The notes: generated by a model not told the origin, from the sequence alone. A stretch of 64,000 bases of DNA from Bacillota bacterium (GCA_018817915.1 JAHISX010000043.1:2591-66590), one strand, 5' to 3'. Shown: positions 8,831 through 35,747, counted from the stretch's first letter. A program made the numbers and translations.

Positions 8831-8880
8831 TAACCAAATATTAATTAGTGATATTAATCAACATATGGAGGCAACTCATA

Positions 8881-9813
8881 ATGGTCTATTATACCAAACG
8901 CGTGTTTTCGGCATTTTTCACCTTACTCATCATTGCATCACTAACGTTTTTTATGATGCGCTCGATTCCAGGTGGACCATTTACACGTGAACGTACACTA
9001 GATCCTGTTATTGAAGCTAGACTGCTTGCTAAATATAATTTAGATGCTCCATTAATGGAACAATATTTTGACTATATGAATGGACTATTTCATTTTGATT
9101 TAGGACCTTCTTTTCAGTATAAAGGCTATACAGTCAATGAAATCATTGCTGTAGGATTTCCTGTATCAGCAAAAATCGGTATTGTGTCTGTCATCATGGT
9201 TGTTATGATTGGTATTCCTATTGGCATTATTTCAGCATTAAAACAAAATAAACCTATTGACTATATTGTGATGATTTTAGCAACTTTAGGGGTGACAATC
9301 CCAAGCTTTGTTATTGCGACTCTATTCCTTTATTATTTTGGAGTCAAATTGAATTGGGTACCAACAGGTGGCTTCGGTCCTAATCCGTTGTATTATATAG
9401 GACCAGTCATTGCATTATCTGGGTATTCATTATCATTTGTTGCAAGATTAACGAGATCAAGCATGTTAGAAGTACTACAACAAGATTATATACGTACTGC
9501 AAGAGCTAACGGGATCAAAGAATATAAAGTAATGTACAAACATGCGCTCAAAAATGCAATTATTCCAGTCATTACTTATGTTGGACCAATGATTGCTGCA
9601 GTACTTACTGGATCATTTGTTGTTGAAAATGTATTTGATATTCCTGGTATTGGTGATCGATTCGTTACCAGTGTATCCAATCGAGATTATACAATGATTG
9701 TTGGTGTTACAGTATTTTACGCCGCTTTCTATATCATAATGGTTTTACTTGTGGACATTGCTTACTCGCTTATTGATCCACGCATAAGACTCGGCAAGAA
9801 GAGTGGTGATTGA
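8881..9813 (+). CDS. oppB: Oligopeptide/dipeptide ABC transporter permease (OppB/DppB type)
   Basis: N-terminus YTKRVFSAFFTLLIIASLTFFMMRSIPGGPF, plus YIRTARANGIKE (EAA loop). RBS atggagg lies before ATG 8881. Confidence 0.9.
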   Translation: MVYYTKRVFSAFFTLLIIASLTFFMMRSIPGGPFTRERTLDPVIEARLLAKYNLDAPLMEQYFDYMNGLFHFDLGPSFQYKGYTVNEIIAVGFPVSAKIGIVSVIMVVMIGIPIGIISALKQNKPIDYIVMILATLGVTIPSFVIATLFLYYFGVKLNWVPTGGFGPNPLYYIGPVIALSGYSLSFVARLTRSSMLEVLQQDYIRTARANGIKEYKVMYKHALKNAIIPVITYVGPMIAAVLTGSFVVENVFDIPGIGDRFVTSVSNRDYTMIVGVTVFYAAFYIIMVLLVDIAYSLIDPRIRLGKKSGD

Positions 9814-9814
9814 T

Positions 9815-11002
9815 ATGAAAAAGAGCGATTTTAATTTTGTAAGTGCTGAAGCAAAAATCAGTAACGAACAAATCAGACCAGGATTAACTTATTGGAAAGA
9901 TGCATGGAGAAGACTTAAGAAAAACGTTTTAGCCATGATTGGTTTAGTTGTTATTGTTCTTGTTACCTTGTTTGGTGTATTTGGTCCATTTTTTACACCA
10001 TTTTTAGATAGTACTCAAGTCGTGGGCTATACCAACATTCCTCCAAGACTTACTATTACAAAAGCAGGAGATACATTCTTTTATTTCAATGGCACACAAT
10101 ATGATTTGTATGCTGTAACTGAAAAAGGTATGCTTTTAGTAAAACTTGATGAAATTAGATTGGATGCAGTTGAACAAAAGTATTATTTTGAATATGAAGG
10201 TGAAGAAGTCATTCTTGATTATTCATATAAATTGCAAGAAGACTTGGCATTTGAAGGTATTAACTTTAGCATTACTTATCGAGGATATGAGTATAAAGGT
10301 ATCTATAAAACAGTCGCCAATCAAATGTTTCCTTGGGGATCTGATAATATGGGACGAGATGTGTTAACAAGAGTCATGTATGGTGCTCGTATTTCATTAT
10401 TTATTGCATTAGTTGCGGCACTCGTCAATCTTCTCATAGGCGTTCTCTATGGTAGTATTTCAGGTTTAGAAGGGGGAACAGTCGATAATATCATGATGAG
10501 AATCATTGATGTCATTAACTCCATTCCTTTGCTCTTATATGTTATTTTGATTATGGTTATCCTAGATGATAATAGTATGTTTACAGTCATTCTCACCTTA
10601 GGACTCGTCTATTGGGTTGGTATGGCAAGACTTGTTCGAGGACAAGTCTTAGGACTTAAAAATCAAGAATTTGTTCTCGCTGCAAGAGCTATAGGTGTCC
10701 CTAAGAGACAAATTATTTTTAGACACTTAATTCCAAACGCACTTGGTCCTATAGTTGTTTCATTAACCATGATGATTCCTAGTGCAATCTTTACTGAAGC
10801 ATTTTTAAGTTTTATTGGACTTGGAGCATCTGCTCCACAAGCTTCTTGGGGATCTCTAGCCAATGATGCTGTTGAAGTTTTTAGATCATCATTCTATCAG
10901 TTGGTATTTCCTGCATCAGCAATTGCAATTACCATTCTAGCATTTAATTTCTTTGGTGACGGGCTTAGATCAGCTCTCGATCCTAAGCTGAGAAAGGGGT
11001 AA
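9815..11002 (+). CDS. oppC: Oligopeptide ABC transporter permease (OppC type) with an enlarged first extracytoplasmic loop
   Basis: PWGSDNMGRDVLTRV and FVLAARAIGVPKRQIIFRHLIPN motifs. 395 aa, about 90 aa longer than the classical OppC. Confidence 0.9.
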   Translation: MKKSDFNFVSAEAKISNEQIRPGLTYWKDAWRRLKKNVLAMIGLVVIVLVTLFGVFGPFFTPFLDSTQVVGYTNIPPRLTITKAGDTFFYFNGTQYDLYAVTEKGMLLVKLDEIRLDAVEQKYYFEYEGEEVILDYSYKLQEDLAFEGINFSITYRGYEYKGIYKTVANQMFPWGSDNMGRDVLTRVMYGARISLFIALVAALVNLLIGVLYGSISGLEGGTVDNIMMRIIDVINSIPLLLYVILIMVILDDNSMFTVILTLGLVYWVGMARLVRGQVLGLKNQEFVLAARAIGVPKRQIIFRHLIPNALGPIVVSLTMMIPSAIFTEAFLSFIGLGASAPQASWGSLANDAVEVFRSSFYQLVFPASAIAITILAFNFFGDGLRSALDPKLRKG

Positions 11003-11008
11003 TCGCAT

Positions 11009-12034
11009 ATGAAAGTACTAGAGGTTAAGAACCTTAAGACCAGCTTTTTCACTCACATGGGTGAAGTTCAAGCAGTACGTGGCATTTCTTTTGATCTTGA
11101 AAAAGGAGAAATCTTGGGTATTGTAGGAGAATCAGGATCTGGCAAAAGTGTAACATCGCTATCTATTATGGGTTTGATTGATGAACCAGGTAGAATTAAA
11201 GAAGGAGAAATACTGTTTCAAGGCAGAGATTTATCTAAGCTGACGCACCATGAACTTACTGATATTAGAGGTAAAGATATTGCAATGATCTTCCAAGATC
11301 CAATGACATCTTTGAATCCACTATTTAAAATTGGAAGTCAAATAAAAGAAGTGATTTTAGAACATACACAGATGTCAAAACAAGAAGCTGAAGCTCATGC
11401 TATTTCACTTTTGAAGCTAGTAAATATTCCAGAACCAGAAACTAGAATGAATCAGTATCCCCATCAATTTTCAGGTGGGATGAGACAAAGAGCATTGATT
11501 GCAATGGCATTATCGTGCGATCCTCAGCTACTTATAGCAGATGAACCCACAACTGCACTTGATGTGACCATCCAAGCCCAAATCCTTGAACTCTTAAGAG
11601 ATTTAAAGGATAAGATTGATTTAAGTATTATTTTAATTACACATGATTTAGGAGTCATTGCTGAGATTTGTTCTAAGGTCGTTATTATGTATGGTGGACT
11701 GATTATGGAAAAAGGAAGTGTCTTTGACATTTTCGAAAATCCTCAGCATCCATATACAAAAGGATTACATCAATCCGTTCCAAAAAATGTTAGAGGATCA
11801 AAAGCAAGATTAATTCCAATTGATGGCACACCACCGGATCTATTAGAACCACCAACAGGATGTCCATTTTCACCAAGATGTCCTCATGCCATGGAAATTT
11901 GTCTAAAAGAAGCAGCACCACTTTTCAAATTAGAAGATGGTCATACTGCATCTTGTTGGTTGCATCACAAGGATGCACCAAAAATTGAAGACTATATTCA
12001 AGTGAAGGGGGATGAATTCGATGTTGTCGAATGA
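11009..12034 (+). CDS. oppD: Oligopeptide ABC transporter ATPase
   Basis: Walker A GESGSGKS, signature FSGGMRQR, Walker B LLIADEPTTALD, and a C-terminal Cys-rich oligopeptide-type extension (GCPFSPRCPHAMEIC). Confidence 0.93.
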   Translation: MKVLEVKNLKTSFFTHMGEVQAVRGISFDLEKGEILGIVGESGSGKSVTSLSIMGLIDEPGRIKEGEILFQGRDLSKLTHHELTDIRGKDIAMIFQDPMTSLNPLFKIGSQIKEVILEHTQMSKQEAEAHAISLLKLVNIPEPETRMNQYPHQFSGGMRQRALIAMALSCDPQLLIADEPTTALDVTIQAQILELLRDLKDKIDLSIILITHDLGVIAEICSKVVIMYGGLIMEKGSVFDIFENPQHPYTKGLHQSVPKNVRGSKARLIPIDGTPPDLLEPPTGCPFSPRCPHAMEICLKEAAPLFKLEDGHTASCWLHHKDAPKIEDYIQVKGDEFDVVE

Positions 12035-13025
12035 AAAAGAACCTTTACTAGAAGTAAGAGGACTAAAGAAACATTTTGATTTAAGTACACTTGGCAATAA
12101 AAAGATTCTTGCAGCTGTAGACGGTATTGATTTTATCATCTATAAAGGCGAGACATTTGGATTAGTCGGTGAATCAGGTTGTGGTAAAACAACAACGGGA
12201 AGATTGATCGTTAAGCTGTATCGTCCGACAGCTGGTAGTATCATTTTTGATGGTATTGATTATGCAGGTGTTTCTGAAAGACAGTTAAAACCCTTTAGAA
12301 AACGGGTTCAAATGATTTTCCAAGACCCATATGCATCCTTAAATTCTAGAATGACAGTAACGGAAATCATTGCTGAAGGCATTAAGACCCATAAAATTCT
12401 TACATCAAAAACAGATATTGAAAATCGTGTTCATGAACTTCTAGAAAAAGTAGGGCTTAAAAGAGAGCATGCAGGCAGATATCCCCATGAATTTTCTGGT
12501 GGACAACGTCAAAGAATTGGCATTGCCCGTGCACTTGCTTTAAATCCTGAATTAATTGTTGCTGATGAACCAATCAGTGCGCTCGATGTATCTATCCAAG
12601 CACAAGTGATCAACATGTTAGAAGATTTACAAAAAGAGTTTAACCTAACTTATCTTTTTATCGCACATGATCTATCTATGGTACGTCATATCAGCGATCG
12701 TATCGGTGTTATGTATCTTGGAAAGATGATGGAAATTGGAGTGAGTGATGATGTATATGAAAAACCACTTCATCCTTATACAAAATCTTTATTATCTGCA
12801 ATTCCAATTGCAAATCCAAGAGTCAGAATGAAAGATACAAGAGTTATTTTACAAGGAGATGTAACCAGTCCGATTAATCCACAACCAGGATGTCGGTTTG
12901 CAACTCGGTGTCCTTATGCTGTTGACAGATGTCACAATGAAACACCAGAGTTTAGAGAAGTTTTACCCAATCGAATGACTGCTTGTCATTTGATTGAAGA
13001 AATCAACGGTTTAACCACCAAATAG
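12021..13025 (+). CDS. oppF: Oligopeptide ABC transporter ATPase
   Basis: Walker [10 protein letters not shown], signature FSGGQRQR, Walker [13 protein letters not shown], and C-terminal [15 protein letters not shown]. Start is 12012 or 12021. Confidence 0.93.
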
Positions 13026-13060
13026 GTGTTTAAATAAAAAAAAAGAGGAGAGAGAAAAAA

Positions 13061-14800
13061 ATGAAAAAACTAGTAACACTTATAGTGGCACTAGCTATCG
13101 TGTTCGGCCTAGCTGCATGTCAAGAACCAAGAGACACTACAGTTTTGCGTTGGAACATCGGTGCTGACCCACTAACTTTGGACCCATCATTGAATGGTGC
13201 TTCAGATGGCGGAGACGTTATCAATAATACATTTGAAGGACTTGTTCGTGAATTCAATGGCGTCGTTGAACCTGGTATTGCTGAGTCTTGGGTAACTTCC
13301 AATGAAGGTAAGACGATTACATTTACACTTCGCGATTCTTTTTGGAGTGATGGATCAGATTTGACTGCTTCAGACTTTGTATATACATGGCTTAGAGCAA
13401 TGAGCCCAGAAACAGCTAGCGAATATGCTTGGATTTGGGAATATACAAATGTAGTTGGAGCAAATGAATATGTATATTTCTATGATGAAGCAGACAATGC
13501 AACTGGAGATGAAAATGTATATGATGACGATGGCGTACTGGTAGGAACAAACTACTCAGATGGTCTTGATGATGAAACTGGCTATACATTAGCTGAATCA
13601 AGAGATAACGTAGGCATTTCAGCACCAAACGACAATACACTTGTTGTTGAACTTAATAATCCAACAAGCTACTTTGTAAGTTTGATGGCATTCTATCATT
13701 TCTTACCTGTTAAACAGTCTTCAGTTGAAGCTGTTGGTGGTGAAGATGGACTTTGGGCTAAAAAACCTGATCTTGCTGTTTCAAATGGACCATTCAAGTT
13801 AACTGAATATACACTTGGAGATGGTTTAGTTCTTGAAAAGAATGATAACTACTGGGAAGCTGACAGTGTAAAACTTGAAAAAATTGAAGGTTCATTTATT
13901 GACAATGAATCAACTGCATATGATAAATATAATTCAGATGAATTAGATTATATTCCTGCAGTTCCAAGTTCAGAAATGACTCGTCTAATTGCTGAAGATC
14001 CAGAATTCCACGTATTTGCATTACTTGGAACTTATTATTACAGTTTTAATTTAGATGTAGAATTATTCCAAAATCTTAAACTACGTACTGCATTAGCATA
14101 TGCTGTTGATAGAGAAGCTGTTGTTGAAGCATTAGGTGGTGGACAAGTTCCTGCTGCTGGTTTCATACCTCCAGGATTTATTGATAATGAAGGTAATGAC
14201 TTCTTCGCAGAAGCTGGTACTTATGGCATGGTTGCTGATGATTCAAACTTTGATGAAGCAGTTACTTTGTTTGCTCAAGCTGCAGCTGAAATGGATATGA
14301 CAGTTGCTGAACTTCAAGCTGCATTAGCTGCTTCTGAACTTTCTTATAATACTTCAGATGCACATGCAATGGTTGCACAACTTGTTCAAGAATCATGGAA
14401 TCAAGTTCTTGGATTCCAAATGGACTTAGTCAATAGCGAATGGGCTGTTTTCCAAGTTGATAGAACAAATGGTAACTTTGATGTTGCTCGTGGTGGTTGG
14501 TTAACTGACTTCATGGATCCAATTGGAATGCTTGCAATCTTCACGGATGGTAATGCTTATAATGATCCTAATTATTATAACCCAACATTTGATACATTAA
14601 TTGAAGAAGCACAAGCAACTACAGATCCTGCAGTTCACTTTGCTAAATTATACGCTGCTCAAGATGAAATTATGGGCGATATGCCAATCGTTCCAGTATA
14701 CCATTACTCAGATTTCATGTATGTTAAATCATATTTGAAGGATTGGGGACGTAGTGTTCTTGGTACTGTTGACTTTAGTAGAGCATATATCGAAGAATAA
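13061..14800 (+). CDS. oppA: Oligopeptide-binding lipoprotein (family 5 SBP)
   Basis: Signal peptide with lipobox LAAC. LTLDPSLN...INNTFEGLV and DNYWEAD are typical of family 5 SBPs. It is the last gene of the operon (BCDFA order). Confidence 0.88.
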   Translation: MKKLVTLIVALAIVFGLAACQEPRDTTVLRWNIGADPLTLDPSLNGASDGGDVINNTFEGLVREFNGVVEPGIAESWVTSNEGKTITFTLRDSFWSDGSDLTASDFVYTWLRAMSPETASEYAWIWEYTNVVGANEYVYFYDEADNATGDENVYDDDGVLVGTNYSDGLDDETGYTLAESRDNVGISAPNDNTLVVELNNPTSYFVSLMAFYHFLPVKQSSVEAVGGEDGLWAKKPDLAVSNGPFKLTEYTLGDGLVLEKNDNYWEADSVKLEKIEGSFIDNESTAYDKYNSDELDYIPAVPSSEMTRLIAEDPEFHVFALLGTYYYSFNLDVELFQNLKLRTALAYAVDREAVVEALGGGQVPAAGFIPPGFIDNEGNDFFAEAGTYGMVADDSNFDEAVTLFAQAAAEMDMTVAELQAALAASELSYNTSDAHAMVAQLVQESWNQVLGFQMDLVNSEWAVFQVDRTNGNFDVARGGWLTDFMDPIGMLAIFTDGNAYNDPNYYNPTFDTLIEEAQATTDPAVHFAKLYAAQDEIMGDMPIVPVYHYSDFMYVKSYLKDWGRSVLGTVDFSRAYIEE

Positions 14801-14842
14801 TATTTACACAACACATTGATTTTTAATTAAATCTTACGAATG

Positions 14843-14879
14843 AAAAGCATATCGGAGTAATTTCTGATATGCTTTTTTT
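14843..14879 (+). terminator. Intrinsic terminator of the opp operon
   Basis: 11-bp stem aaaagcatatc (14843-14853) / gatatgctttt (14866-14876) running into a T-run that ends at 14879. Confidence 0.85.
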
Positions 14880-14938
14880 AAATAAATGATGCCTATTTAT
14901 ATAAAACTACAAGAAATTTATTTTTTTGGTGAAATTAG

Positions 14939-14967
14939 TTGCAAAAAGAAAGCGATTACATTATAAT
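14939..14967 (+). promoter_or_regulatory. Sigma-A promoter of the glycan-utilisation island
   Basis: -35 TTGCAA (14939-14944), exactly 17-nt spacer, consensus -10 TATAAT (14962-14967). Confidence 0.6.
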
Positions 14968-14970
14968 ATG

Positions 14971-14986
14971 ATTGAAACGTTTCGAT
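14971..14986. promoter_or_regulatory. LacI-family operator O1 (attgaaacgtttcgat)
   Basis: 16-mer with a CG centre. It is one of three near-identical copies in the window (with 15121 and 35732) and overlaps the predicted transcription start of the promoter at 14939-14967. Confidence 0.6.
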
Positions 14987-15120
14987 AACCATATCGAGCG
15001 ACAGAACAAATATGATAAAACATCCAGTTTCATGGCAAAAGTATCTAATCCTTGCAAAAGATAATGCGTAAGAGATTACTGATAGGATTAAAGAGGATCT
15101 GGATTATATTTTTTCTAAAA

Positions 15121-15136
15121 CTCGAAACGTTTCGAT
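15121..15136. promoter_or_regulatory. LacI-family operator O2 (ctcgaaacgtttcgat)
   Basis: Same palindrome core cgaaacgtttcgataa as O1, centred exactly 150 bp downstream of O1 and 53 nt upstream of the lipoprotein ATG. Confidence 0.6.
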
Positions 15137-15188
15137 AATTATATTTTTAATAAGAATCTAAGTGATTGAAAAATTTAGGAGGAGAAAA

Positions 15189-18100
15189 ATGAACAAAGTT
15201 TTTAAACTATTTACAGTTTTGTTAATGGTTGGATTAGCTTTTGGAATTACGGCATGTAAAGAAGATGACCCTATTATTATTCCCGAAGTTACTGAATTCA
15301 ACGTTTTAGGCGGATGGACCGATGGCGGAGATGGTGTTTATACATTGAACACAAACACAACATCTGAATTAGACTTTTCTTACGATAAGGCTGCTTTTCC
15401 ATATGCATTTATGAGTAGTGCTGATATCACTCAAGACCTTTCTATATTTAAGAAGTTGGTCATTACAGTTGAAGGCACAGGCTCAATGCTTGTAAAACTA
15501 GAAACAAATGATTCAACACCTGCAAAAGAAGTTGGGTTAAATGTTACTGGTATTCAAGGCACTTATGAATGGAATTTACTTGCAGATTCAGCTTTCTTAG
15601 CTAAAGTTGATAAAGTAGTGGTTATTGCTGCTCCTGGTAAAGAAGATTCTATTGGTGATATTACAATTTCAGAATTGAAATTTGATGTTGCTGTTGCTGA
15701 TGGATTTATTATTCAAACAGACTTTTCAAACATTCCAACAAACGTGAATGAATATAACGGAACAGACGAAAATTTCGATTTCAATATGAAGTGGGAAAAT
15801 TTTGCTGAAGAAACTTATACAATTTCATATGTTGGTACAACTACAGTCGTTTCATTTGATAAAGCTGCTGGCCAAGAATGGTCAACAATGCAATCACAAG
15901 TGCAAGGCGATTTCACTGATTTCAACTATGTCGTTGCAATCGTTAGTGGTACTGTTGGACAAAAATTCTTACTTAAAGCAGCAAACGGTTATGAAAATTT
16001 CATTTTCTTAACAGCTGAACAACAAGAAGTCGTCGTTGATATTTCAGCAATGACAGCTGCTGAAAAGAATGCGATTACTGCAATCTTTGCATTTGGTAAA
16101 GCTGGCGCATCTGGTACTGGTGATTTTGTGATCCATGAAGCTTTCATGACAGCAACTTACGATTATCAACCTCCAGTTATTATTAAGAATATCTATAATG
16201 GTACTGATTTATCATTTGGTGTTACACAATGGTATGATGGTGGAGATTTAAATTACACCTTAACACCTAGTGGATCAGATTTAGTTGTTGATTATAACAA
16301 GACATCTGATTGGGCTTATATGGTTGGTCATATTGAAGGCGACTTAAGCGCATTTGCTAAAGTTGAATTCGAAGTCACAGGTACATTAAACAAGACAGCA
16401 TTATTTAAAGTTGAAAGTCCTTCTGGTAACATTGAAAAATCAGTTACATTTGATGGAACTAGACAAACAATCGTTATTGAACTATCAGCTATGACACCAA
16501 CTGCAGTATCTACTATTAATAAAGTAGTCATCTTTGCAGCTCCAGGTGGTTCAGGCTCTGGTCAATTCACACTACACAGAACAACATTTATGACATCAGA
16601 TTTCAGTTTACAAGATACTTGGGCTGAAAATGATCTTGGAACATATACATTCTCAACAACAGTTGACGACACAGTATTAGTTACTTATACGAAGGTTGCT
16701 CAAGGTTGGGTTTATATGAAGAGTGTATTTACTGAAGAAGAAGTTACTGGTTTGAATACTTTAACAGTCACATTAAAAGGCACAGATGGCAAACAAGTTC
16801 TTGTTAAAGCTAACGGTGTTGAACAATGGGTAACATTTGTTGGTACTGCTGAACAAACTGTGACATTTACTGCAACTCTATTTACTGAAATCATTATGTT
16901 TGCTGAAGGTGGCGTTGATAATGCTACAGGAACATTTGAAATCGTGAGTGCAAACTTAAGTTACGTTGCTCCTGATTTAGATCCAACACTGATACTTGAT
17001 ATCAATTCAAATTGGACTGAAAATGATCTAGACACTTATGCATTTACAACAGTTGCTGGTGTAGTCACAGTTGATTATACTAAAATAGCAGGTCAAGAAT
17101 GGTCATTCTTTAGACAAAATTTTGATTCTCAAGAAGTTGCTGGATTAAATACATTAACATTAGTATTACAAGGTACAGAAGGCAAGACTGTCTTAGTTAA
17201 GCCAAATGATAGTGGCGTATTAGAACAAGCAGTTACATTTGGTACTGAACCAGTTACAGTTGTGGTTTATGCTGATGCTTTCGCTAATATTATTTTCTTT
17301 GGTGAAGCTGGTGTTGCACCTGCTTCAGGATCTTTCCAAATCTTAAGTGCTACTTTAAGTTACACTTACATGGTTGATGAATGGATTCCTAACGTAGCTA
17401 CAATTTATACATTGACAGAAGTTGCAGGAGAAATCACAGTTGATTATGCTAAACTTGCTGGCAACGAATGGGAATGGTTAAGAGTTCAATTCAATGCAAA
17501 TGACGTTGCAGGATTAAACACATTAACAATGGTCGTATCTGGTACCGTTGGACAAACTTTATTGATTAAGCCAAATGATAATGGTGCTTTAGAACAAAGT
17601 GTAACATTTGCTGATACAGATCCAGTGACACTCGTATTTACTACAGACGCATTCGCAAATGTATTTATATTTGCTGAACCAAATACCGCACCAGCTACTG
17701 GTACATTTACAATTAACAGTGCTACTTTGACTTATGTTCCTTTTGATTTTGATCCAACATTAGTCATTGATGCAAATGCTGATTGGTTTGCAAATGTTGG
17801 AACCATTTACACAATTACAAATACTGATGGTGTTACTTCAGTAGACTATGATAAACTTGCAGGTAATGAATGGGAATGGATTAAAGTCAATTTCAATCAA
17901 GAAGATGCAATGGGACTTAACACATTAACAATCGTTGTTCAAGGTACAGCTGGGCAAACTATTTTAATTAAGCCGAATGATAATGGTGCTTTAGAACAAT
18001 CCATTACTTTTGCAGATGCAAATCCAGTAACAGTGGTCGTTACAGCAGATAATTTCTTAAATGTCATTATATTTGCTGCTCCAGGAACTGCTCCAGCATC

Positions 18101-19280
18101 AGGCTCATTTGATATCATAAGCACAAAATTAAGTTATGTATACAACACAACTGATTGGTTTGCTAACAATGTATCTATTTATACAATCGTGGTTACAGAT
18201 GCAGTAGCAGATGTTGACTATGCGAAACTTGCTGGCAATGAATGGGAATGGATAAAAGTCGAATTTGATCCAGAAATGAGTGTAGGATTAAATACACTTA
18301 CTATTACTGTTCAAGGTACAGTTGGACAAACATTATTAATTAAGCCAAATGATAATGGCGCTTTAGAACAAAGTGTAACATTTGCTGATACAGATCCTGT
18401 AACACTTGTTATAACTGCTCCTTCATTTGCTAATATCATTTTATTTGCTGAACCAGGAACTGCTCCAGCAACTGGATCATTCTCGATCGTCAGCACAAAA
18501 TTAACTTATGTAGAACCTGCTGTTGATTTGACACGTGAATTCGATTTGAATCCAACTTGGATAGAAAATGACTTAGGAACATATTCAACATCAACAACAG
18601 TTGATAATACAATCTTAGTGACATATACAAAAGTTGCACAAGGTTGGGTCTTCCTGAAGAGTGTATTCACTGCTGAAGATGTTTTAGGTTTGAATACCTT
18701 AACAGTCACTTTAAAAGGTACAGATGGTAAACAAGTTATGGTCAAGGCTAATGGTGTTGAACAATGGGTAACATTTGTTGGTACTGCTGAACAAACGGTA
18801 ACATTTAAAGCAGCAGCATTCACTGAAATCATTATGTTTGCTGAAGGTGGTGTTGATGACGCTACAGGTACATTTGAAATCGTTAGTGCAGTATTAAGTT
18901 ATGAATTTGATTTGCAATCAACTTGGGCAGAAAATGATTTAGGAACTTATTCATTTTCAACAACAGTTGATGATACAGTCTTAGTTACATATACAAAGGT
19001 TGCACAAGGCTGGGTCTTCTTAAAGAGCGTATTTACTCCTGAAGAAGTTGCTGGTATGAATACTTTGACTGTGACAATTAAAGGTACAGATGGAAAACAA
19101 GTTTTAGTTAAAGTTAATGGTGTTGAACAATGGGTAACATTTGTTGGTACTGCTGAACAAACAGTAACTTTCACTACTGCAGGATTTACTGAAATCATTA
19201 TGTTTGCTGAAGGTGGCGTTGATGATGCTACTGGCACATTTGAAATTATCAATGCAGTTGCGACTTACGTACAACCATAA
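15189..19280 (+). CDS. Giant surface lipoprotein (1363 aa) built from ten related ~120-155-aa beta-sandwich-like (CBM-like) modules
   Basis: RBS aggaggag lies before ATG 15189. Signal peptide plus lipobox FGITAC. Ten modules share the template W..(N)D..TY.......V.Y.K.AG.EW........GLNTLT..V.GT.G...L.K.N........TF.......V.......I..FAE.G...A.G.F.I.S..L.Y. Confidence 0.85.
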   Translation: MNKVFKLFTVLLMVGLAFGITACKEDDPIIIPEVTEFNVLGGWTDGGDGVYTLNTNTTSELDFSYDKAAFPYAFMSSADITQDLSIFKKLVITVEGTGSMLVKLETNDSTPAKEVGLNVTGIQGTYEWNLLADSAFLAKVDKVVVIAAPGKEDSIGDITISELKFDVAVADGFIIQTDFSNIPTNVNEYNGTDENFDFNMKWENFAEETYTISYVGTTTVVSFDKAAGQEWSTMQSQVQGDFTDFNYVVAIVSGTVGQKFLLKAANGYENFIFLTAEQQEVVVDISAMTAAEKNAITAIFAFGKAGASGTGDFVIHEAFMTATYDYQPPVIIKNIYNGTDLSFGVTQWYDGGDLNYTLTPSGSDLVVDYNKTSDWAYMVGHIEGDLSAFAKVEFEVTGTLNKTALFKVESPSGNIEKSVTFDGTRQTIVIELSAMTPTAVSTINKVVIFAAPGGSGSGQFTLHRTTFMTSDFSLQDTWAENDLGTYTFSTTVDDTVLVTYTKVAQGWVYMKSVFTEEEVTGLNTLTVTLKGTDGKQVLVKANGVEQWVTFVGTAEQTVTFTATLFTEIIMFAEGGVDNATGTFEIVSANLSYVAPDLDPTLILDINSNWTENDLDTYAFTTVAGVVTVDYTKIAGQEWSFFRQNFDSQEVAGLNTLTLVLQGTEGKTVLVKPNDSGVLEQAVTFGTEPVTVVVYADAFANIIFFGEAGVAPASGSFQILSATLSYTYMVDEWIPNVATIYTLTEVAGEITVDYAKLAGNEWEWLRVQFNANDVAGLNTLTMVVSGTVGQTLLIKPNDNGALEQSVTFADTDPVTLVFTTDAFANVFIFAEPNTAPATGTFTINSATLTYVPFDFDPTLVIDANADWFANVGTIYTITNTDGVTSVDYDKLAGNEWEWIKVNFNQEDAMGLNTLTIVVQGTAGQTILIKPNDNGALEQSITFADANPVTVVVTADNFLNVIIFAAPGTAPASGSFDIISTKLSYVYNTTDWFANNVSIYTIVVTDAVADVDYAKLAGNEWEWIKVEFDPEMSVGLNTLTITVQGTVGQTLLIKPNDNGALEQSVTFADTDPVTLVITAPSFANIILFAEPGTAPATGSFSIVSTKLTYVEPAVDLTREFDLNPTWIENDLGTYSTSTTVDNTILVTYTKVAQGWVFLKSVFTAEDVLGLNTLTVTLKGTDGKQVMVKANGVEQWVTFVGTAEQTVTFKAAAFTEIIMFAEGGVDDATGTFEIVSAVLSYEFDLQSTWAENDLGTYSFSTTVDDTVLVTYTKVAQGWVFLKSVFTPEEVAGMNTLTVTIKGTDGKQVLVKVNGVEQWVTFVGTAEQTVTFTTAGFTEIIMFAEGGVDDATGTFEIINAVATYVQP
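16620..19277 (+). repeat. Seven tandem in-frame repeats (366-402 nt each) within the lipoprotein gene, in two subfamilies ordered A-B-B-B-B-A-A
   Basis: Repeat-initial TGG codons sit at 16620, 17013, 17382, 17784, 18156, 18558 and 18924. A 44-nt block ggtgttgaacaatgggtaacatttgttggtactgctgaacaaac is identical at 16815, 18753 and 19119. A 38-nt block gctttagaacaaagtgtaacatttgctgatacagatcc is shared by the B copies starting at 17382 and 18156. Confidence 0.92.
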
Positions 19281-19311
19281 TAAAGACAAGTAGTACATAA
19301 ATAATAATCTT

Positions 19312-19366
19312 AATTGCGAGCTAGAAGCTATTTGAGTAGTTACTGCTGCTATCTCGCAATTTTTAG
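19312..19366 (+). terminator. Possible terminator/attenuator after the lipoprotein gene
   Basis: 9-bp stem aattgcgag (19312-19320) / ctcgcaatt (19353-19361), then a T-run. The 32-nt loop makes it atypical, so read-through is likely. Confidence 0.45.
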
Positions 19367-19467
19367 ATTTTGTTTTCTCAAAAATATTCAGTAAAAACTA
19401 AATTTTTAACAAATTTATTGAAGTTATCATTTATAATGATGATTATAGGTATGATAAGGAGAAAAGT

Positions 19468-20901
19468 ATGAAAAAAATAATGATTATTGTAGGAGCAATC
19501 CTATTATCTTTTGGATTATTAGCTTGTACAAAAGATGAAGTACCAAGTGGTAAGACAGTCATTACTTATGCGTCTTGGAATTTAGGTTCAGAGGAAGCTA
19601 CAGAACCTAATATGGAAAGACTCATGATTGATGCTTTTATGGAAAAATATACAGATATTGAAGTTCAAATTATTGAAAGACCAAAAATTCCAGGAACAAA
19701 TAATGATTTAGGATGGAATGAATTTTTAGCAGCTCGTGCTTCAACACAAACTTTACCAGATGTTTTTCAATCTGATAACATTCCTTATTATGTTATTAAT
19801 GACTGGGCTTATAATTTGACAGACATCGCAATGGCTGATCCAGAATATCTAAACGTGAGTGAAGATATTAGATCAGTAGCTACATATGATGGAAAAGTCA
19901 TGGCATTACCAAATGCAGTACATTATGCTGGTTATGTTGTTAATCAAACATTATATGATAATCAAGGTCAGGATTATCCAACTGTTGATTCAACAATGGA
20001 TGAAGTGATTCAAATGACCAAAGCTGCTGCAAATCATGCCAGTACAAATAATACTGGTGTTGTTGGTTTTGAAGGTATTGAACATATCATTCATTGGTAT
20101 CCAGCACAACTAAATCCTGATTATGGTTGGTTTACACTATCAGAAGATGGATTTAATCTTGATTCACCTGAATTTGCTACAACAATGGAACTATATCGCA
20201 CAATGAGAACTGATACTACTTACGTATTAGAAGCATTATTTGATGCTGCTGCAGCTGAAGAATCAACTGTTGTTCTTGGCGACATTTTTCCTGAAGGTGA
20301 TTATTTTAATAATGGCGTAATTCTAATTAAATGGTATTATTCTTGGGATTTTGGTTGGATTCAATCAAAAATTAACTCAGGAGATTATACTTGGGATCTA
20401 GATTTCATTGGTACACCAGTTGTTAATGGTGTGAAACGTGTTCCGATTGTTGCTGATTTCTTTACAGTCGCATCAAATACGGCACATCCTGAAGAAGCTT
20501 ATTTACTTTCTAAATGGATGGGTTATGGTAAAGATGGATATCAAGAACGCTTAGATTTAAGTTCAAGTGTTGAAGGTATTTCACAAGTTAACTTTGCACC
20601 AATTCAAAATGACTCAGACTTACTAGATGCATACTTTGCTTTATATCCATCATTTTCAAGTCTAAGAAGCATTATTGAAGACGGTACATTAATTGTTGAA
20701 CCTCCAAAGTATTTACCTGGATATATCAATGCAAGATATCAAGGTACATATGATGCTGAAAATAAAATGGGTGATATCATCAACGGTCTGATGGCTGGTG
20801 AAGTTTTACTCGCAGATATTAAGACACAACTCAATTTACGTGCAAATGCCTTATATGATGAAGCACGTCAAGAATTCGAAACTGCATTGGCAAATAAATA
20901 A
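19468..20901 (+). CDS. Carbohydrate ABC transporter substrate-binding lipoprotein (family 1 SBP)
   Basis: Signal peptide plus lipobox LLAC. VITYASWNLGSEE...IEVQII...LPDVFQ are typical features of sugar SBPs. RBS aaggag. Confidence 0.85.
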   Translation: MKKIMIIVGAILLSFGLLACTKDEVPSGKTVITYASWNLGSEEATEPNMERLMIDAFMEKYTDIEVQIIERPKIPGTNNDLGWNEFLAARASTQTLPDVFQSDNIPYYVINDWAYNLTDIAMADPEYLNVSEDIRSVATYDGKVMALPNAVHYAGYVVNQTLYDNQGQDYPTVDSTMDEVIQMTKAAANHASTNNTGVVGFEGIEHIIHWYPAQLNPDYGWFTLSEDGFNLDSPEFATTMELYRTMRTDTTYVLEALFDAAAAEESTVVLGDIFPEGDYFNNGVILIKWYYSWDFGWIQSKINSGDYTWDLDFIGTPVVNGVKRVPIVADFFTVASNTAHPEEAYLLSKWMGYGKDGYQERLDLSSSVEGISQVNFAPIQNDSDLLDAYFALYPSFSSLRSIIEDGTLIVEPPKYLPGYINARYQGTYDAENKMGDIINGLMAGEVLLADIKTQLNLRANALYDEARQEFETALANK

Positions 20902-20946: not shown

Positions 20947-20967
20947 CAAAAATGAATGAGGGGACAT

Positions 20968-23940
20968 ATGAAAATATCAGTTAAGCTAAAAAAATATGTA
21001 ATATGGGGACTTTCTGGACTCATTCTCATTTTTATTATCCTTGGTTTGAGTGGAACATTCAGTTCAACTGGTGTTGCTCATCCAACTTTAGATATCTTAC
21101 CTGCAGTTGCTGTTGAGGATTATTATACATCTTATTTATCAACCTATGCACAGGCTATTACTGACAGTGATGAAGTACATATCATTTCAGCGCCTGATTT
21201 TGTGCTACCCTTAGGTGATCATTTAAGTGATGATTTAACATATTATGAATGGATAGATGATAGCACAATTTCTTTACAAGTCTCAGTCGGAACAAGTGGC
21301 TTATATCATATATTTGTTGATTACATGTCTCAAACAGATTCACATATGCCTATTTCATTATCTGTTCAATTGAATGGAGAAGCATATGCACCCTATTATG
21401 AAGCATCACAAGTTACTTTAAACACTTTGTGGAAAGAATCAACAGAAGAATTAGGGACAGACCGTTATGGCAATGATGTGAGCGTCATGCAAGAAGTCGT
21501 CGAAGAGTGGCAATACGTGTCACTTAAAGATGCTAGACGTCTTTATCCTGATGGATTGATGTTTTATTTACCAGAAGGAGAAAATCAGATTCAAATAGAA
21601 AAACTTTCTGGTGAATTATTATTAAGAGAAATTAAAATTCAAGCTAAAACAGAATATATAACTTATGAAAATTACCTCAATTCTCAAGCAGCAACATCCG
21701 CAACTGGACTCGTTCGCCTTGAAGCTGAGGAAGCATATTATAAAAATTCATCAACCATTGGACGCGGTGTGAGTAGAGATCCACTCGTACTTCCTTTTTC
21801 GATGACAAAATTAAAACTCAATGTTCTGGGTGCGGACTCATTTGATATATCAGGAGATGCAGTTACATGGCTCGCAGAAGTAGAACAACCTGGATATTAT
21901 GCGCTCACCCTCAAAGTCAAACAAACGATGCAAAATACGACCGTTTATCGGAGTTTATATATCAATGGGGAACTTCCTTTTCTTGAGGCGCAGGTTTTGC
22001 CAATCTCATATGATCGAGGCTGGCAAAACTTGACACTCTCAAACACTGAGAATGAACCTTACTTATTCTATTTAGAACCAGGTGATAAAATTACTTTAGA
22101 AGTGAACAGTTCAATGTTTACAACTGTTGTTGATCGCCTAAGAATTATCAGTAATGAAATGAGTCAACTTGGTCTTGATATTACAAAATTAACAAGAAAT
22201 AATACAGACCAAGGTATTGATTGGGATATGATTTTATATTTTCCTAATCTTGAAACAGAATTAGCTGATTGGATTACAGAACTTAATTTAATTACATCTT
22301 CTCTAAGTTCAATGTATGGATTCGATAAGGATGCTCAAGTTGTGCAAGATATTCAAGCAGCAATAAGTAAAATTGAAAGTATTGCAGCAGATATCAATGA
22401 ATTACCGAGACGTTTAACACTTTTATCAACAGGATCTTCAAGTGCTGTTCAGCTTCTTAGTAGTCAAATAGATAGCATTTTAAAACAACCAATGCTCTTA
22501 GACTCTATTTTTATTCATACATTAGATCAAGAATTACCAAAAGCTAACGGTAAAGGATGGGATAGTTTTAAGATTTCATTTGGACGGTTTTTCCTCTCAT
22601 TCTTTGATACTTCATACACAGAAAAAGCAACCGCTGATGAATTAGAAGTTTGGGTGAATCGATCACGTCAATATGTTGACTTGCTTCAAAAAATAACAGA
22701 TGACCAGTTTACAACTGAAACTGGAATTAAGGTTAAAATTTCGCTTATTAGTGATGATAGCAAGCTCTTGCTTGCTAACTCAGCAGATCAGCAGCCTGAT
22801 GCTGCTTTAGGTATCTCTGCATGGATACCGAATGAATATGGTATGCGTGGTATGCTTTATGATATGACTCAAGCGGATGGATTTTCCGATGTCATCTCCG
22901 TTTTCAATCCAGAACAACTCATTCCAATGGTTTATGATGGTAAACTTTATGGATTACCAGAAACAGAAAACTTCTTTGTTCTATTCTATAGAAAAGATAT
23001 TTTAGATCAACTAGATTTAACTGTTCCTAATACATGGGATGATGTTTTAAACATGTTACCAGTTCTAAGAAGATATGGGATGAGTTTTTATATTCCACTT
23101 TCAAATAGTAGTTCTTTAAAATCATTTGATGCTACCGGACCTTTTATCAATCAATTTGAAGGAGAAATTTATGCTCCAGATGGATTGTCAGCAGCACTAG
23201 ATAATGAAAATACAATTGAAGCGATGACATTTATGACAGATCTATTCCGAGAATATAGTATGCCATACCAAGTTGCTAGCTTCTTTAATAGTTTTAGATA
23301 TTCAAGCATACCAATTGGAATTGGTGATTTTGGCATGTATTTGCAATTGATGAATGCAGCATCTGATATTAGTGGTTTATGGAATATCGCACTTGTTCCT
23401 GGTATCGAACATGAGGTTTACAATACAGATACTGATCAAATGGAAACAGTCGTTAATCGTTCTATGTCTGGGGCACAACAAGCAAGTGTTATCTTTGAAA
23501 AGAGTGACAAAAAAGAAGAAGCATGGTCTTTCCTTTCCTGGTGGATGTCCACGGATACTCAAGTTATGTTTTCAAATACCTTGCTCAACACGCTAGGTAC
23601 AAGATATTTATGGAATAGTGCCAATCTAGAAGCATTTGAACAATTCAGTTGGAATGAAGAGCATAAAGCAATCATTCTTGAACAATGGACACATTTAAAA
23701 GAAATTCCTAAAATACCTGGAAGTTACATTATTGAACGCGAAATCAGTAACACTTGGAATAGTGTGGTTTATGATGATTCCAATCTAAGAAGTACAGTCA
23801 GTGATGCCTTAATTAAAATCAATAAAGAATTAGCACGCAAATTAAAGGAATTTGGATATCTTGATGATAAAGGAAATGTCATCAAGCCTTTCATTTTACC
23901 AACAAGAGAACTCATTGAAAGTTGGTATCCACATGACTAA
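20968..23940 (+). CDS. Membrane-anchored giant solute-binding protein (990 aa): N-terminal TM, two CBM-like beta-sandwich regions, a helical linker and a C-terminal family 1 SBP domain
   Basis: TM helix [18 protein letters not shown] with no lipobox. [15 protein letters not shown] is a CBM6/35-style 'EAE' start. The C-terminal ~430 aa (ELEVWVNRS...[18 protein letters not shown]...[12 protein letters not shown]) is sugar-SBP-like. Confidence 0.7.
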
Positions 23941-25773: not shown

Positions 25774-27804
25774 ATGAAAAAACTAACGATATTTACGATC
25801 CTACTTTCTTTCATCTTCATCTTTACACAAGCAAACTTAAGTGTTAATGCCTCAGGTCAATTAGCTAATTATGGTATTCCATATCAAACTTATACCCTTT
25901 CATCTTCAAATAGTTTCATACCTACTCAAACAGCATATATACCTGTAGGTGTTCTTGGAGAAGATTTAGGACTCAATGCACCAGAAGATATCTTTTATCT
26001 TGATGACTTATTTTATATAGCTGACACAGGAAACAAAAGAGTTATCGTTATTAATTTAGCAGGTGATCTCATCGATTCATATGCATTAGTTGAATTCCAA
26101 AGTCCAACAGGAATCTTTGTTAAATCAGGATACTTATATGTAGCAGATAAAACAGCTAAGGCAGTTTATCAAATTGAAATGTCTTCGAAAACTATTACTC
26201 AAACAATTACTAAGCCAACATCGCCTATTTATGGGCAACAAAATGACTTTGTTCCTACAAAGGTTGCTGTTGATAGCAGTGATAGTATATACATTATCGG
26301 GGAAGGCTCTACAAGTGGTGTCATTCAAGTCAATTATGCTGGTGAATTTGTCGGTTATCTAGGTATCAATACAGTCCCATTAAGTCTAAGAAAAATCATT
26401 TATAATTTCTTTGTTGCTGATTCGAATCTAGCATCAAGTACACCACCATCTCCAACAAACTTAGCTTTAGGAGCCAAAGGTTCTATTCTTACAACCAATG
26501 CTAATGTGACTGAGACATTTAAAAGACTCAATATTTCTGGTATTAATACACTGTTTGATACAACCGTTTATCCATCTGTTGGTCTTTCAGATATTTGGAT
26601 GAATAATGAAAACTATATTTATTTGGTTGCTGATAGTGGCGAAGTCTATGAATATGATTCAAATGGTAATATGTTGTTCTATTTCAATACAAACGATACA
26701 ACCTTAACCCAATCACTCGGATTGACATCTCAAGCAAGAGGTATAGGAACAGATAGTATCGGTAATCTATATATTCTAGACAAAGGATATAATTCAATCC
26801 AAGTTTATCAACGCACAGTCTTCGTTGACCTCGTTCATGAAGCAGTCACGATGTATAACGACGGTAAATATGTTGAATCTAAACCTATTTGGGAAGAAAT
26901 CATTAGACAAAACAGTTCTTTTGCGCTGGCACATTCAGCATTAGGTAGTGCACTTGCAAAAGAAGGAGAATTCTCAGCTGCTTTATCTGAATTCTACGAC
27001 GCAAAAGATTATAAAGGATACTCAGATACATTTTGGGAAATTAGAAATGTTGCTATTCAAGATAATCTAGGCATGTGGGCAATTTCGCTTTTAGGCATCT
27101 ACATTGTATTTAAGATATCGAGATCTCTTTTTAGAAAATCGTCTGCATATGAAGTTTATCAAGAAAAGAAAAAGAAAGTATTGAACCAGAAACTGACTTC
27201 AGAGGTTGTTTATTCACTGAATGTAATTAAGCGTCCAAATGATATGTTCTTTGGAATCAAGAGATACAATTCAGCAAGCTATCTATCTGGCTTTATTGTA
27301 TTCTTTATGTTCATTATTGTTTATTTGATCAATATCTACGCAACTGGATTCTTATTTAGGGATGCAAATCCAAATAATGTTATCATCGAACTTGCTATGG
27401 TTATAGGCGTTTTCTTCCTATATGTTGTTGTAAATTATTTGGTCAGTACATTAAATGATGGTGAAGGTAGATTTAAAGATATTTTAATCTCAACGTCTTA
27501 CATTTTAGTACCATTCATTATATTTACATTACCAATGACTTTCCTTTCCAATTATCTGACTTATAATGAATCCTTCATCTTTATTTTCTATCATCAAATT
27601 ATTCTAATATGGACAATGATTTTAATTGTTATTTCAATTAAGAGTGTTCATAACTACACGTTCTGGGAAACAGTTAAAAATATCTTAATTATCATATTTG
27701 GTATGTTTATACTCATCCTGATTGGTCTATTGATATATTCTTTCTTGGGTCAGCTAATCGAATTTGTTCTATCTGTCATCAAGGAGGTGATTTATCGTGT
27801 CTAA
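25774..27804 (+). CDS. Secreted NHL-repeat beta-propeller + TPR-like segment fused to a C-terminal Yip1-type multi-TM domain
   Basis: Signal peptide. Five to six NHL-like blades (YIADTGNKRVIVINLAGDLI; LYVADKTAKAVYQIE; IYIIGEGSTSGVIQVNYAGEFV; IYLVADSGEVYEYDSNGNML; LYILDKGYNSIQVYQ). A TPR-like helix pair (ALAHSALGSALAKEGEFSAALSEFYDA). The last ~250 aa contain about 6 TM segments with Yip1-like organisation. Confidence 0.65.
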   Translation: MKKLTIFTILLSFIFIFTQANLSVNASGQLANYGIPYQTYTLSSSNSFIPTQTAYIPVGVLGEDLGLNAPEDIFYLDDLFYIADTGNKRVIVINLAGDLIDSYALVEFQSPTGIFVKSGYLYVADKTAKAVYQIEMSSKTITQTITKPTSPIYGQQNDFVPTKVAVDSSDSIYIIGEGSTSGVIQVNYAGEFVGYLGINTVPLSLRKIIYNFFVADSNLASSTPPSPTNLALGAKGSILTTNANVTETFKRLNISGINTLFDTTVYPSVGLSDIWMNNENYIYLVADSGEVYEYDSNGNMLFYFNTNDTTLTQSLGLTSQARGIGTDSIGNLYILDKGYNSIQVYQRTVFVDLVHEAVTMYNDGKYVESKPIWEEIIRQNSSFALAHSALGSALAKEGEFSAALSEFYDAKDYKGYSDTFWEIRNVAIQDNLGMWAISLLGIYIVFKISRSLFRKSSAYEVYQEKKKKVLNQKLTSEVVYSLNVIKRPNDMFFGIKRYNSASYLSGFIVFFMFIIVYLINIYATGFLFRDANPNNVIIELAMVIGVFFLYVVVNYLVSTLNDGEGRFKDILISTSYILVPFIIFTLPMTFLSNYLTYNESFIFIFYHQIILIWTMILIVISIKSVHNYTFWETVKNILIIIFGMFILILIGLLIYSFLGQLIEFVLSVIKEVIYRV

Positions 27805-35636: not shown

Positions 35637-35731
35637 TGAGAAACACTTCCTTACTTTATAGGTTAAAGACTCTAGGGCTTTAACAATTGTGATTGCTTTA
35701 ATATATTTTATCATATAAAATAGAAATAGAT

Positions 35732-35747
35732 ATCGAAACGTTTCAAT
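35732..35747. promoter_or_regulatory. LacI-family operator O3 (atcgaaacgtttcaat) in the divergent GH35 / GH144-lacI-GH3-GH94 control region
   Basis: Third copy of the cgaaacgttt-c palindrome. It sits between a candidate plus-strand promoter (TTGCTT 35693-35698 / TAAAAT 35716-35721) and ATG 35758, and upstream of a minus-strand TGnTAAAAT (35705-35713). Confidence 0.6.

Follow-up and report, generated by a model that had tools for sequence, protein, structure and literature searches.

The 64,000-nucleotide stretch of DNA analysed here (Bacillota bacterium, GCA_018817915.1 JAHISX010000043.1:2591-66590; hereafter the window) contains a predicted β-1,2-glucan utilisation island that opens with the gene of a large modular lipoprotein. 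We refer to this ten-module protein of 1363 residues, encoded at 15189–19280 on the plus strand (stop codon included), as LP10. Its coding sequence, delineated by reading frame, translation and a hidden Markov model (HMM) of the modules, lies within a long plus-strand open reading frame (ORF; 15162–19280) that ends with the stop codon at 19280. The likely start codon, ATG at 15189, is spaced by 5 nucleotides (AGAAA) from a ribosome-binding site AGGAGG, read from the sequence at 15178–15183 on the same strand. The N-terminus of the product (MNKVFKLFTVLLMVGLAFGITAC) combines a basic n-region, a hydrophobic core and the lipobox LAFGITA-C, where I-T-A-C23 satisfies the pattern [LVI][ASTVI][GAS]C of bacterial lipoprotein signals. 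Signal peptide and lipobox (MNKVFKLFTVLLMVGLAFGITA followed by C; 15189–15257, plus strand) hence predict Cys23 as the lipidated residue, and a lipobox-like N-terminus was likewise found in 190 of the 224 family proteins collected. An initial annotation of this DNA had described a lipoprotein with the lipobox FGITAC, composed of ten related modules, and both statements were borne out by the analysis.

A self-BLAST of LP10 returned the identity match only, and the repeats were resolved by HMM instead. The model, trained solely on modules 4–10 and then run on the whole protein, returned ten domains that tile the entire chain: seven within residues 471–1363 (E 1e-59 to 1e-66) and, ahead of them, the divergent modules 1–3 at residues 39–161, 196–321 and 346–465 (E 8e-7, 2e-14 and 6e-11). 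This ten-fold homology is far beyond chance. Domain cores span 123–133 residues and are joined by linkers of 0–30 residues. Modules 4, 9 and 10 are mutually 83–84% identical (type A) and modules 6–8 share 64–70% identity (type B), with module 5 being intermediate; the identity of modules 1–3 to one another and to the remaining modules amounts to just 19–31%. Since the ten modules tile the protein, no room is left for a catalytic domain and a cryptic enzyme was dismissed. The module is not carried by any other ORF of the 64-kb window. Two ORFs antisense to LP10 (18506–18832 and 18947–19252, minus strand) were regarded as chance ORFs.

The modules, all on the plus strand, fall into a head and an array. 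The head comprises module 1 (residues 39–167, 15303–15689), defined by the HMM, by positional orthology across the family and by a β-sandwich in the AlphaFold2 model, as well as modules 2 (residues 194–326, 15768–16166) and 3 (residues 342–469, 16212–16595), both defined by HMM and AlphaFold2. Modules 1 and 2 are connected by a structured linker (residues 168–193, 15690–15767, with the core ADGFIIQTDFSNIPTNVNEYNGTDE), which was recognised by its conservation and by a predicted local distance difference test score (pLDDT) of 87–94. The array begins with module 4 (type A; residues 470–595, 16596–16973), an HMM domain 83% identical to modules 9 and 10. It continues with modules 5 (intermediate; residues 601–726, 16989–17366), 6 (type B; residues 727–852, 17367–17744), 7 (type B; residues 858–984, 17760–18140), 8 (type B; residues 985–1110, 18141–18518), 9 (type A; residues 1116–1238, 18534–18902) and 10 (type A; residues 1239–1363, 18903–19277). 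Module 6 was modelled singly; modules 5 and 7–10 were assigned by HMM and identity.

An alignment of 100 diverse modules yielded the consensus W..VYT..V.Y.K..W...N.L...GT.G..L.K.ND...E..TF...IFA.PG...G.F.I., with Y14, G59, K68, E76 and G112 (module 6 numbering) as conserved residues, in agreement with the motif template noted before. AlphaFold2 folded module 6 with this alignment into an all-β structure of nine strands (pLDDT 96.9, predicted TM-score 0.89). A single module thus appears to be an autonomously folding contiguous unit, as the CAZy definition of a carbohydrate-binding module (CBM) demands. The head (residues 22–472) was predicted as three β-sandwiches at a pLDDT of 91.1. Foldseek comparison of module 6 with the PDB retrieved almost exclusively β-jelly-roll CBMs, headed by CBM29, CBM4, CBM22, CBM61, CBM86 and CBM27 and including CBM6, along with the CBM-like domain III of Cry1Ac (E ~1e-4, TM-score 0.5–0.63, identity at most 17%). 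The model of the three-module head matched multi-CBM proteins, including SGBP-B (7kwb), a surface glycan-binding protein of Bacteroides. The CBM-type β-sandwich that the initial annotation had proposed was therefore recovered by the predictions for the single module and the head. LP10 is almost certainly a surface lipoprotein made of ten jelly-roll modules.

The same annotation had recognised neither a catalytic motif nor a named CBM family, and searches with Pfam, NCBIfam, PDB profiles and hhalign found none. These family searches covered Pfam, NCBIfam and the PDB, with dbCAN models and CBM families without a solved structure lying outside them. Whole LP10 gave no credible family in Pfam, NCBIfam or the PDB sequences; matches to RNase_PH_C (E 0.002, under its cut-off) and CodY (E 0.14) were at chance level and were discarded. 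CBM_4_9 (PF02018) gave no Pfam match in LP10 at E up to 10. Because CBM_4_9 and the module co-occur in some proteins, remote homology was tried by comparing the module profile with CBM_4_9 domains taken from such proteins, but hhalign returned a probability of 0.2% and the relation was rejected. The 100-module profile found nothing credible among all PDB sequences, the nearest being a designed Ig protein (E 0.002) and CBM11 (E 0.2). The two matched stretches of the designed protein reached E values of at least 0.03 individually, and neither match is evidence of membership. To CBM29, CBM22, CBM61, CBM86, CBM27, CBM6 and CBM11 the module is linked by matches at the level of the fold only, not by sequence similarity. 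No match to the SusE/SusF Pfam families was found in LP10, nor any match to the cohesin and dockerin Pfam families, the mark of a cellulosomal scaffoldin, in LP10 or the island proteins. We thus assign the modelled module to the CBM-type β-jelly-roll fold class, as a family undescribed in Pfam, NCBIfam and the PDB.

Downstream of LP10 follow genes for a solute-binding protein (SBP1), a 994-residue protein with a solute-binding domain, two permeases, an NHL/Yip1 protein, a DUF5696 protein, two further permeases and a GH144 protein (GH144a). Beyond these, GH35 is encoded on the opposite strand, followed by a second GH144 (GH144b), a LacI-family regulator, GH3 and a SOGP-type GH94 phosphorylase. 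SBP1 (19468–20901, plus strand) is a predicted sugar solute-binding lipoprotein with the lipobox LLAC. Its best solved relatives are PDB entry 22hh and siblings (E 9e-45), named only 'Extracellular solute-binding protein family 1'; the ligand of 22hh, if published, would bear directly on the cargo of the SBP1 transporter. The 994-residue protein (20956–23940, plus strand) is an unusual fusion, in which an N-terminal transmembrane helix and some 550 residues without a Pfam match precede a C-terminal SBP domain, and it is conserved beside LP10 in most loci. The best solved relative of this domain is the Listeria sophorooligosaccharide-binding protein Lin1841 (5ysb, E 2e-15). GH144a (31898–33268, plus strand) is a homologue of endo-β-1,2-glucanase (5gzh, E 6e-40). 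Its N-terminus (MKIIKNKKLLLFLFVILLSIGLVSC) with the lipobox LVSC predicts an extracellular lipoprotein, while GH144b lacks a signal peptide. GH35 (33306–35714, minus strand) is nearer to the Ignavibacterium β-1,2-glucosyltransferase, its best solved relative (7vkw, E 2.5e-52), than to β-galactosidases. The SOGP_N, SOGP_2nd and GH94 domains complete the set together with GH3.

The initial annotation had spoken of a β-glucan catabolic island. Four independent markers, namely SOGP/GH94, GH144, the Lin1841-like SBP and the glucosyltransferase-like GH35, sharpen this to a predicted β-1,2-glucan utilisation locus, with enzyme activities assigned by homology to families of known function (PMC11842490, PMC12102758, PMC8861115). 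Given the lipobox of GH144a and the anchors of the solute-binding proteins, the cell surface would carry LP10, an endo-glucanase and SBPs, each held by lipid or a transmembrane helix.

A word-indexed search returned 75 full-length relatives of LP10 (E 1e-106 or better) and one weak partial match. All were nameless or 'hypothetical' and came from Acholeplasmataceae, Mariniplasma, Peloplasma, Paracholeplasma, "Tenericutes" and related metagenome-assembled genomes; a genome scan added Xianfuyuplasma and Izemoplasma as hosts. The hosts belong to a wall-less lineage, in agreement with the earlier suggestion that the organism may lack a wall. The gene order lipoprotein, SBP1, long SBP protein, permeases, NHL/Yip1 and DUF5696 is kept in 21 of the 24 loci with downstream DNA, SBP1 directly following the lipoprotein in the same 21/24. 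Even distant orthologues (30–45% identity) occupy comparable positions, immediately before GH144-LacI in loci L003, L025, L032 and L033 and beside SOGP-GH3-LacI-GH144 and GH35 in L004. We consider it very probable that LP10 functionally belongs to the β-1,2-glucan system.

Upstream of LP10, a sigma-70-like promoter match (TTGCAA-17-TATAAT; 14939–14967, plus strand) agrees with the consensus at 10 of 12 positions and is the best site within 14700–19600, which makes it the presumable promoter. The palindrome GAAACGTTTCGA occurs in exactly three copies in the window, two before LP10 and one before the GH144b-LacI operon. Operator 1 (TTGAAACGTTTCGA, 14972–14985), a LacI-family-type palindrome, lies just past the -10 box, and its counterparts in 21 orthologous loci are found at about -210 to -330. 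Operator 2 (TCGAAACGTTTCGA, 15122–15135), a perfect palindrome ~55 nucleotides 5' of the LP10 start codon, recurs in 24 of 33 orthologous loci, where its position ranges from about -45 to -185. Operator 3 (35733–35746), the same palindrome, is situated between the divergent GH35 and GH144b-LacI-GH3-SOGP genes, in an intergenic region that GH35 has in common with the GH144b operon.

Conservation of these sites was followed through the exact 10-mer GAAACGTTTC, which is present within 450 nucleotides upstream of the lipoprotein gene in 24 of the 33 orthologous loci from other genomes. Two copies about 150 nucleotides apart were found in 21 of those 24, seven further loci contain a version with one mismatch, and the upstream copies are usually the sole ones in the whole 10–24-kb locus. 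The identical 10-mer also lies 5' of a gene in locus L006 that encodes a fusion of GH144 with the module. This retention across orthologous loci supports an operator-controlled promoter, behind which LP10 is the first gene, as had been proposed. Family knowledge and co-conservation point to the island's LacI-family regulator (37015–37974, plus strand) as the presumed binder of all three palindromes and putative repressor of LP10. Downstream of the LP10 stop codon, a terminator-like hairpin with a U-run was detected (19306–19369, plus strand; dG -19.7 kcal/mol, z -2.6).

Comparison of the relatives revealed two parts of the protein with different histories. The first three modules are present and positionally orthologous in all 75 homologues, and the later array varies between two and seven copies that are reshuffled among close relatives. 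LP10 can thus be described as a conserved head beside the lipid anchor with a dynamic array beyond it. Conservation across the family peaks, above that of the modules themselves, where the linker that follows module 1 runs into the start of module 2 (ADGFIIQTDFSNIPTNVNEYNGTDENFDFNMKW; 15690–15790, residues 168–200). Within this stretch, which also served as search pattern for the genome scan, I182, P183, N185, Y189, G191 and F196 (the last just within module 2) are invariant across 22 orthologues. The linker may be a docking site. A short echo of its motif, YNGTD, precedes module 3.

Large repetitive lipoproteins of wall-less bacteria call to mind surface coats and variable antigens of the mollicute type, whose repeat number drifts and which have no nutritional role. 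The five to ten repeats among relatives and the within-protein homogenisation to 83–84% identity would fit such a protein. Mycoplasma-type variable surface lipoproteins combine short tandem repeats with a phase-variation switch, i.e., a homopolymer tract or an invertible promoter. The repeats of LP10, however, are full folded domains of 125 residues rather than short low-complexity units, and no switch element was seen in the upstream region read, although no dedicated search for one was made. A sugar-type LacI operator conserved across genera, the conserved synteny with a catabolic locus and the fusion of the modules to a glycoside hydrolase elsewhere likewise speak against a coat or antigen, which we consider highly improbable.

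These fusions emerged when 1.84 billion representative proteins were searched by profile; 563 of them carry the module, and domain partners were drawn from 150 listed matches among these. Four clusters among the matches listed (P0078, P0079, P0080 and P0114; 1766–2637 residues) consist of an N-terminal GH144 domain (PF10091), an Ig-like domain and 7–11 modules. The first three modules of these enzymes align colinearly with residues 24–470 of LP10 (31% identity over 453 residues, E 1e-57). LP10 thus corresponds to the non-catalytic tail of a modular β-1,2-glucanase, but as a protein of its own. One of the fusion genes shares its locus with genes for SOGP, LacI, permeases, a second GH144 and the NHL/Yip1 and DUF5696 proteins. 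CBMs are classically recognised by their attachment to a carbohydrate-active enzyme; in this family such attachment is found in the GH144-fused relatives and not in LP10 itself. The order within the fusions is N-terminal anchor (mostly a transmembrane helix rather than a lipobox), enzyme and then modules. As the modules are thus placed beyond the enzyme as seen from the membrane, a role as mere stalk or spacer does not fit.

The same arrangement bears on the possibility that LP10 is a scaffoldin-like protein rather than a lectin, which organises GH144a, SBP1, the long SBP fusion, NHL/Yip1 and DUF5696 by protein–protein contacts or spaces them from the membrane. Docking of partners would be consistent with the finding that the family's most conserved stretch, the structured linker together with the three-module head, lies outside any one module, and with a tightly kept gene order that includes four further conserved proteins of the membrane or surface. 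Nevertheless, the modules are distal to the enzyme in the GH144 fusions and not between anchor and enzyme, their fold class matches CBMs, and cohesin and dockerin matches are missing from Pfam searches. Among close relatives the copy number of the array moreover ranges from 3 to 7, a pattern that avidity arrays typically show and specific docking sites do not. We therefore regard a scaffold as unlikely, although scaffold and lectin roles could coexist in LP10.

Taken together, we favour, with a probability of about 0.65, the reading that LP10 binds glycans at the cell surface as a multivalent, non-catalytic protein with a lipid anchor, and that it belongs to the β-1,2-glucan locus of a wall-less, Mariniplasma-like Acholeplasmatales bacterium. 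After Sec export and lipidation at Cys23, LP10 would stand out from the membrane, its ten CBM-like β-jelly-roll modules forming a chain with the three-module head (modules 1–3) next to the anchor and the evolutionarily dynamic array of seven near-identical modules beyond. Many weak sites, up to ten if each module binds, would jointly retain linear or cyclic β-1,2-glucan at the cell surface through avidity. The adjoining lipoprotein GH144a would cleave the polymer, and SBP1 and the Lin1841-like SBP fusion would hand the resulting sophorooligosaccharides to the ABC permeases. Breakdown would be completed in the cytoplasm by GH144b, GH3, SOGP and the glucosyltransferase-like GH35. Acting through the two palindromic operators, the LacI-family repressor of the island would keep the LP10 promoter closed as long as the inducer, which is probably a sophorooligosaccharide, is absent. 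We infer lipidation, surface exposure, binding of and specificity for β-1,2-glucan, ten-site avidity and the hand-off to GH144a and the solute-binding proteins from the features described above. The parts of the earlier interpretation that can be checked computationally all came out as proposed, glycan binding and surface exposure being the predicted remainder.

Several observations weigh against this assignment. The likeness to the CBM fold is moderate, and jelly rolls also occur in non-lectins such as Cry, Vip3, reelin and ephrin receptors. Sequence and profile comparisons with Pfam, NCBIfam and the PDB sequences link the LP10 module to no CBM family. Apart from CBM_4_9 and SBP_bac_8, the module is partnered with Flg_new surface repeats, and many members of the wider family are joined to these and not to carbohydrate-active enzymes, so that the module could be a unit from which surface proteins in general are built. 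Six-module proteins of the Paracholeplasma vituli type form a clade that retains the LacI orthologue but has no β-1,2-glucan genes within 10 kb; in this clade, ligand or locus organisation may be different. The hairpin behind LP10 furthermore suggests that the gene may be largely monocistronic, and co-transcription with the transporter genes is not assured.

Some of these points would suit a surface lectin or adhesin for another ligand, be it a different glycan or cells scavenged for glucans, with the position of LP10 in the locus reflecting shared regulation only. The wider module family indeed occurs with CBM_4_9, with Flg_new repeats and in loci without β-1,2-glucan genes, and several specificities are often found within one CBM family. 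Against this, the direct fusions among the 150 listed matches are to GH144, the β-1,2-glucanase family, and in nearly all of its loci the orthologous group defined by the head is syntenic with β-1,2-glucan genes and has the same operator as these. A different ligand thus seems quite unlikely.

In the P. vituli-type loci (L002 and L005), the lipoprotein gene (10001–12571) comes after that of a large surface protein (DUF4886/Flg_new), and the LacI orthologue (63–66% identical to the LacI of the window) is encoded next. The operator is situated ~3.5 kb upstream, before the preceding gene, and pectate-lyase-like genes are located nearby in L005. This latter locus encodes P0047, which is labelled Methanobacterium sp. 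YSL at NCBI. As its gene order resembles that of P. vituli (L002) and includes a bacterial LacI, the archaeal label is probably a binning or contamination error.

Among known systems, the favoured glycan-binding protein recalls in function SusE/SusF and SGBP-B of Bacteroidota, to which the initial annotation had likened it. In common with these, LP10 has an N-terminal lipidation signal and tandem CBM-like β-sandwich domains, appears non-catalytic, and is encoded inside a substrate-specific, regulator-controlled utilisation locus beside transport genes. Yet it has no sequence relation to these proteins, the host has no outer membrane or SusC/SusD pair, and the neighbours are ABC-transporter components with lipoprotein SBPs instead of TonB-dependent transporters. 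Moreover, SusE/SusF and SGBP-B possess two to four modules, LP10, in Acholeplasmatales, ten. The comparison therefore held at the level of architecture and locus and not of sequence membership: LP10 is an analogue of SusE/SusF-type proteins, not a member.

With type B jelly-roll CBMs (CBM29, CBM4, CBM22, CBM61, CBM86, CBM27 and CBM6) the modules share a size of ~125 residues, the fold class, the tandem arrangement and, in some relatives, attachment to a glycoside hydrolase. They differ in that their TM-scores to these families are only 0.5–0.63 at identities of at most 17%, that Pfam and CBM_4_9 profiles give no signal and that the linked enzyme is GH144. The metagenomic modular GH144 enzymes (P0078, P0079, P0080 and P0114) have the same module family, a colinear head and the same locus type and operator, but unite enzyme, Ig-like domain and modules in one chain, whereas GH144a and LP10 are two separate lipoproteins here.

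The island as a whole resembles the known β-1,2-glucan and sophorooligosaccharide gene clusters, namely lin1838-1841 of Listeria innocua and the SGL clusters of Chitinophaga pinensis and Ignavibacterium album, which feature SOGP/GH94, GH3, GH144, a β-1,2-glucosyltransferase-like GH35, a Lin1841-like SBP and a LacI-type regulator (PMC11842490, PMC8861115). It differs from the published clusters by opening with LP10 and by the addition of conserved NHL/Yip1 and DUF5696 genes. In the literature searched, we found no mention of a multi-module surface binder in published β-1,2-glucan clusters, no described CBM specific for β-1,2-glucan, and nothing relevant on glycan-utilisation lipoproteins of Acholeplasma or Mariniplasma.

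The familiar general concept of polymer capture at the cell surface would thus be met here in a candidate new CBM family and with a Sus-like logic in wall-less bacteria. More tentatively, the evidence could be combined into a bolder picture, in which the module founds a new CBM family for linear or cyclic β-1,2-glucan (or both), as the first binder for this polymer, and LP10 is the wall-less counterpart of Bacteroidota surface glycan-binding proteins. The conserved head of LP10 would attach to the machinery of GH144a and the SBPs, with the evolvable avidity array extending for tens of nanometres beyond the naked membrane. β-1,2-Glucans, which include osmoregulated periplasmic glucans as well as the cyclic glucans made by Rhizobiales and Brucella, are of importance to symbiosis and infection. 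If validated, the LP10 module would constitute a new CBM family and a ready probe or affinity reagent to detect and purify these rare polysaccharides, whose enzymology has opened up only recently (PMC11842490, PMC12102758). The system further hints at how bacteria without wall or outer membrane may arrange polymer capture at the bare membrane: with binder, endo-glucanase and SBPs all as lipoproteins, it would parallel the Sus paradigm, built from unrelated parts. The split (LP10 and GH144a) and fused (GH144-module) forms offer a natural experiment on attaching binding arrays to enzymes and detaching them.

Two neighbouring groups of genes deserve mention. The NHL-repeat/Yip1 membrane protein, which has a signal peptide, and the membrane-anchored DUF5696 protein are encoded at 25774–30055 and are conserved with the second permease pair in these loci. 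No relative of solved structure was found for the DUF5696 protein. Both recur at 1624–5845 of L006, in a lineage of higher GC content (48%) that carries the GH144 fusion. Upstream of LP10, an Opp-type peptide ABC operon with two permeases, two ATPases and an SBP_bac_5 lipoprotein (8848–14800) separates it from a CitMHS gene (7304–8422, minus strand). In many related genomes CitMHS is the immediate upstream neighbour of the lipoprotein gene, so that the Opp operon looks like an insertion in this lineage.

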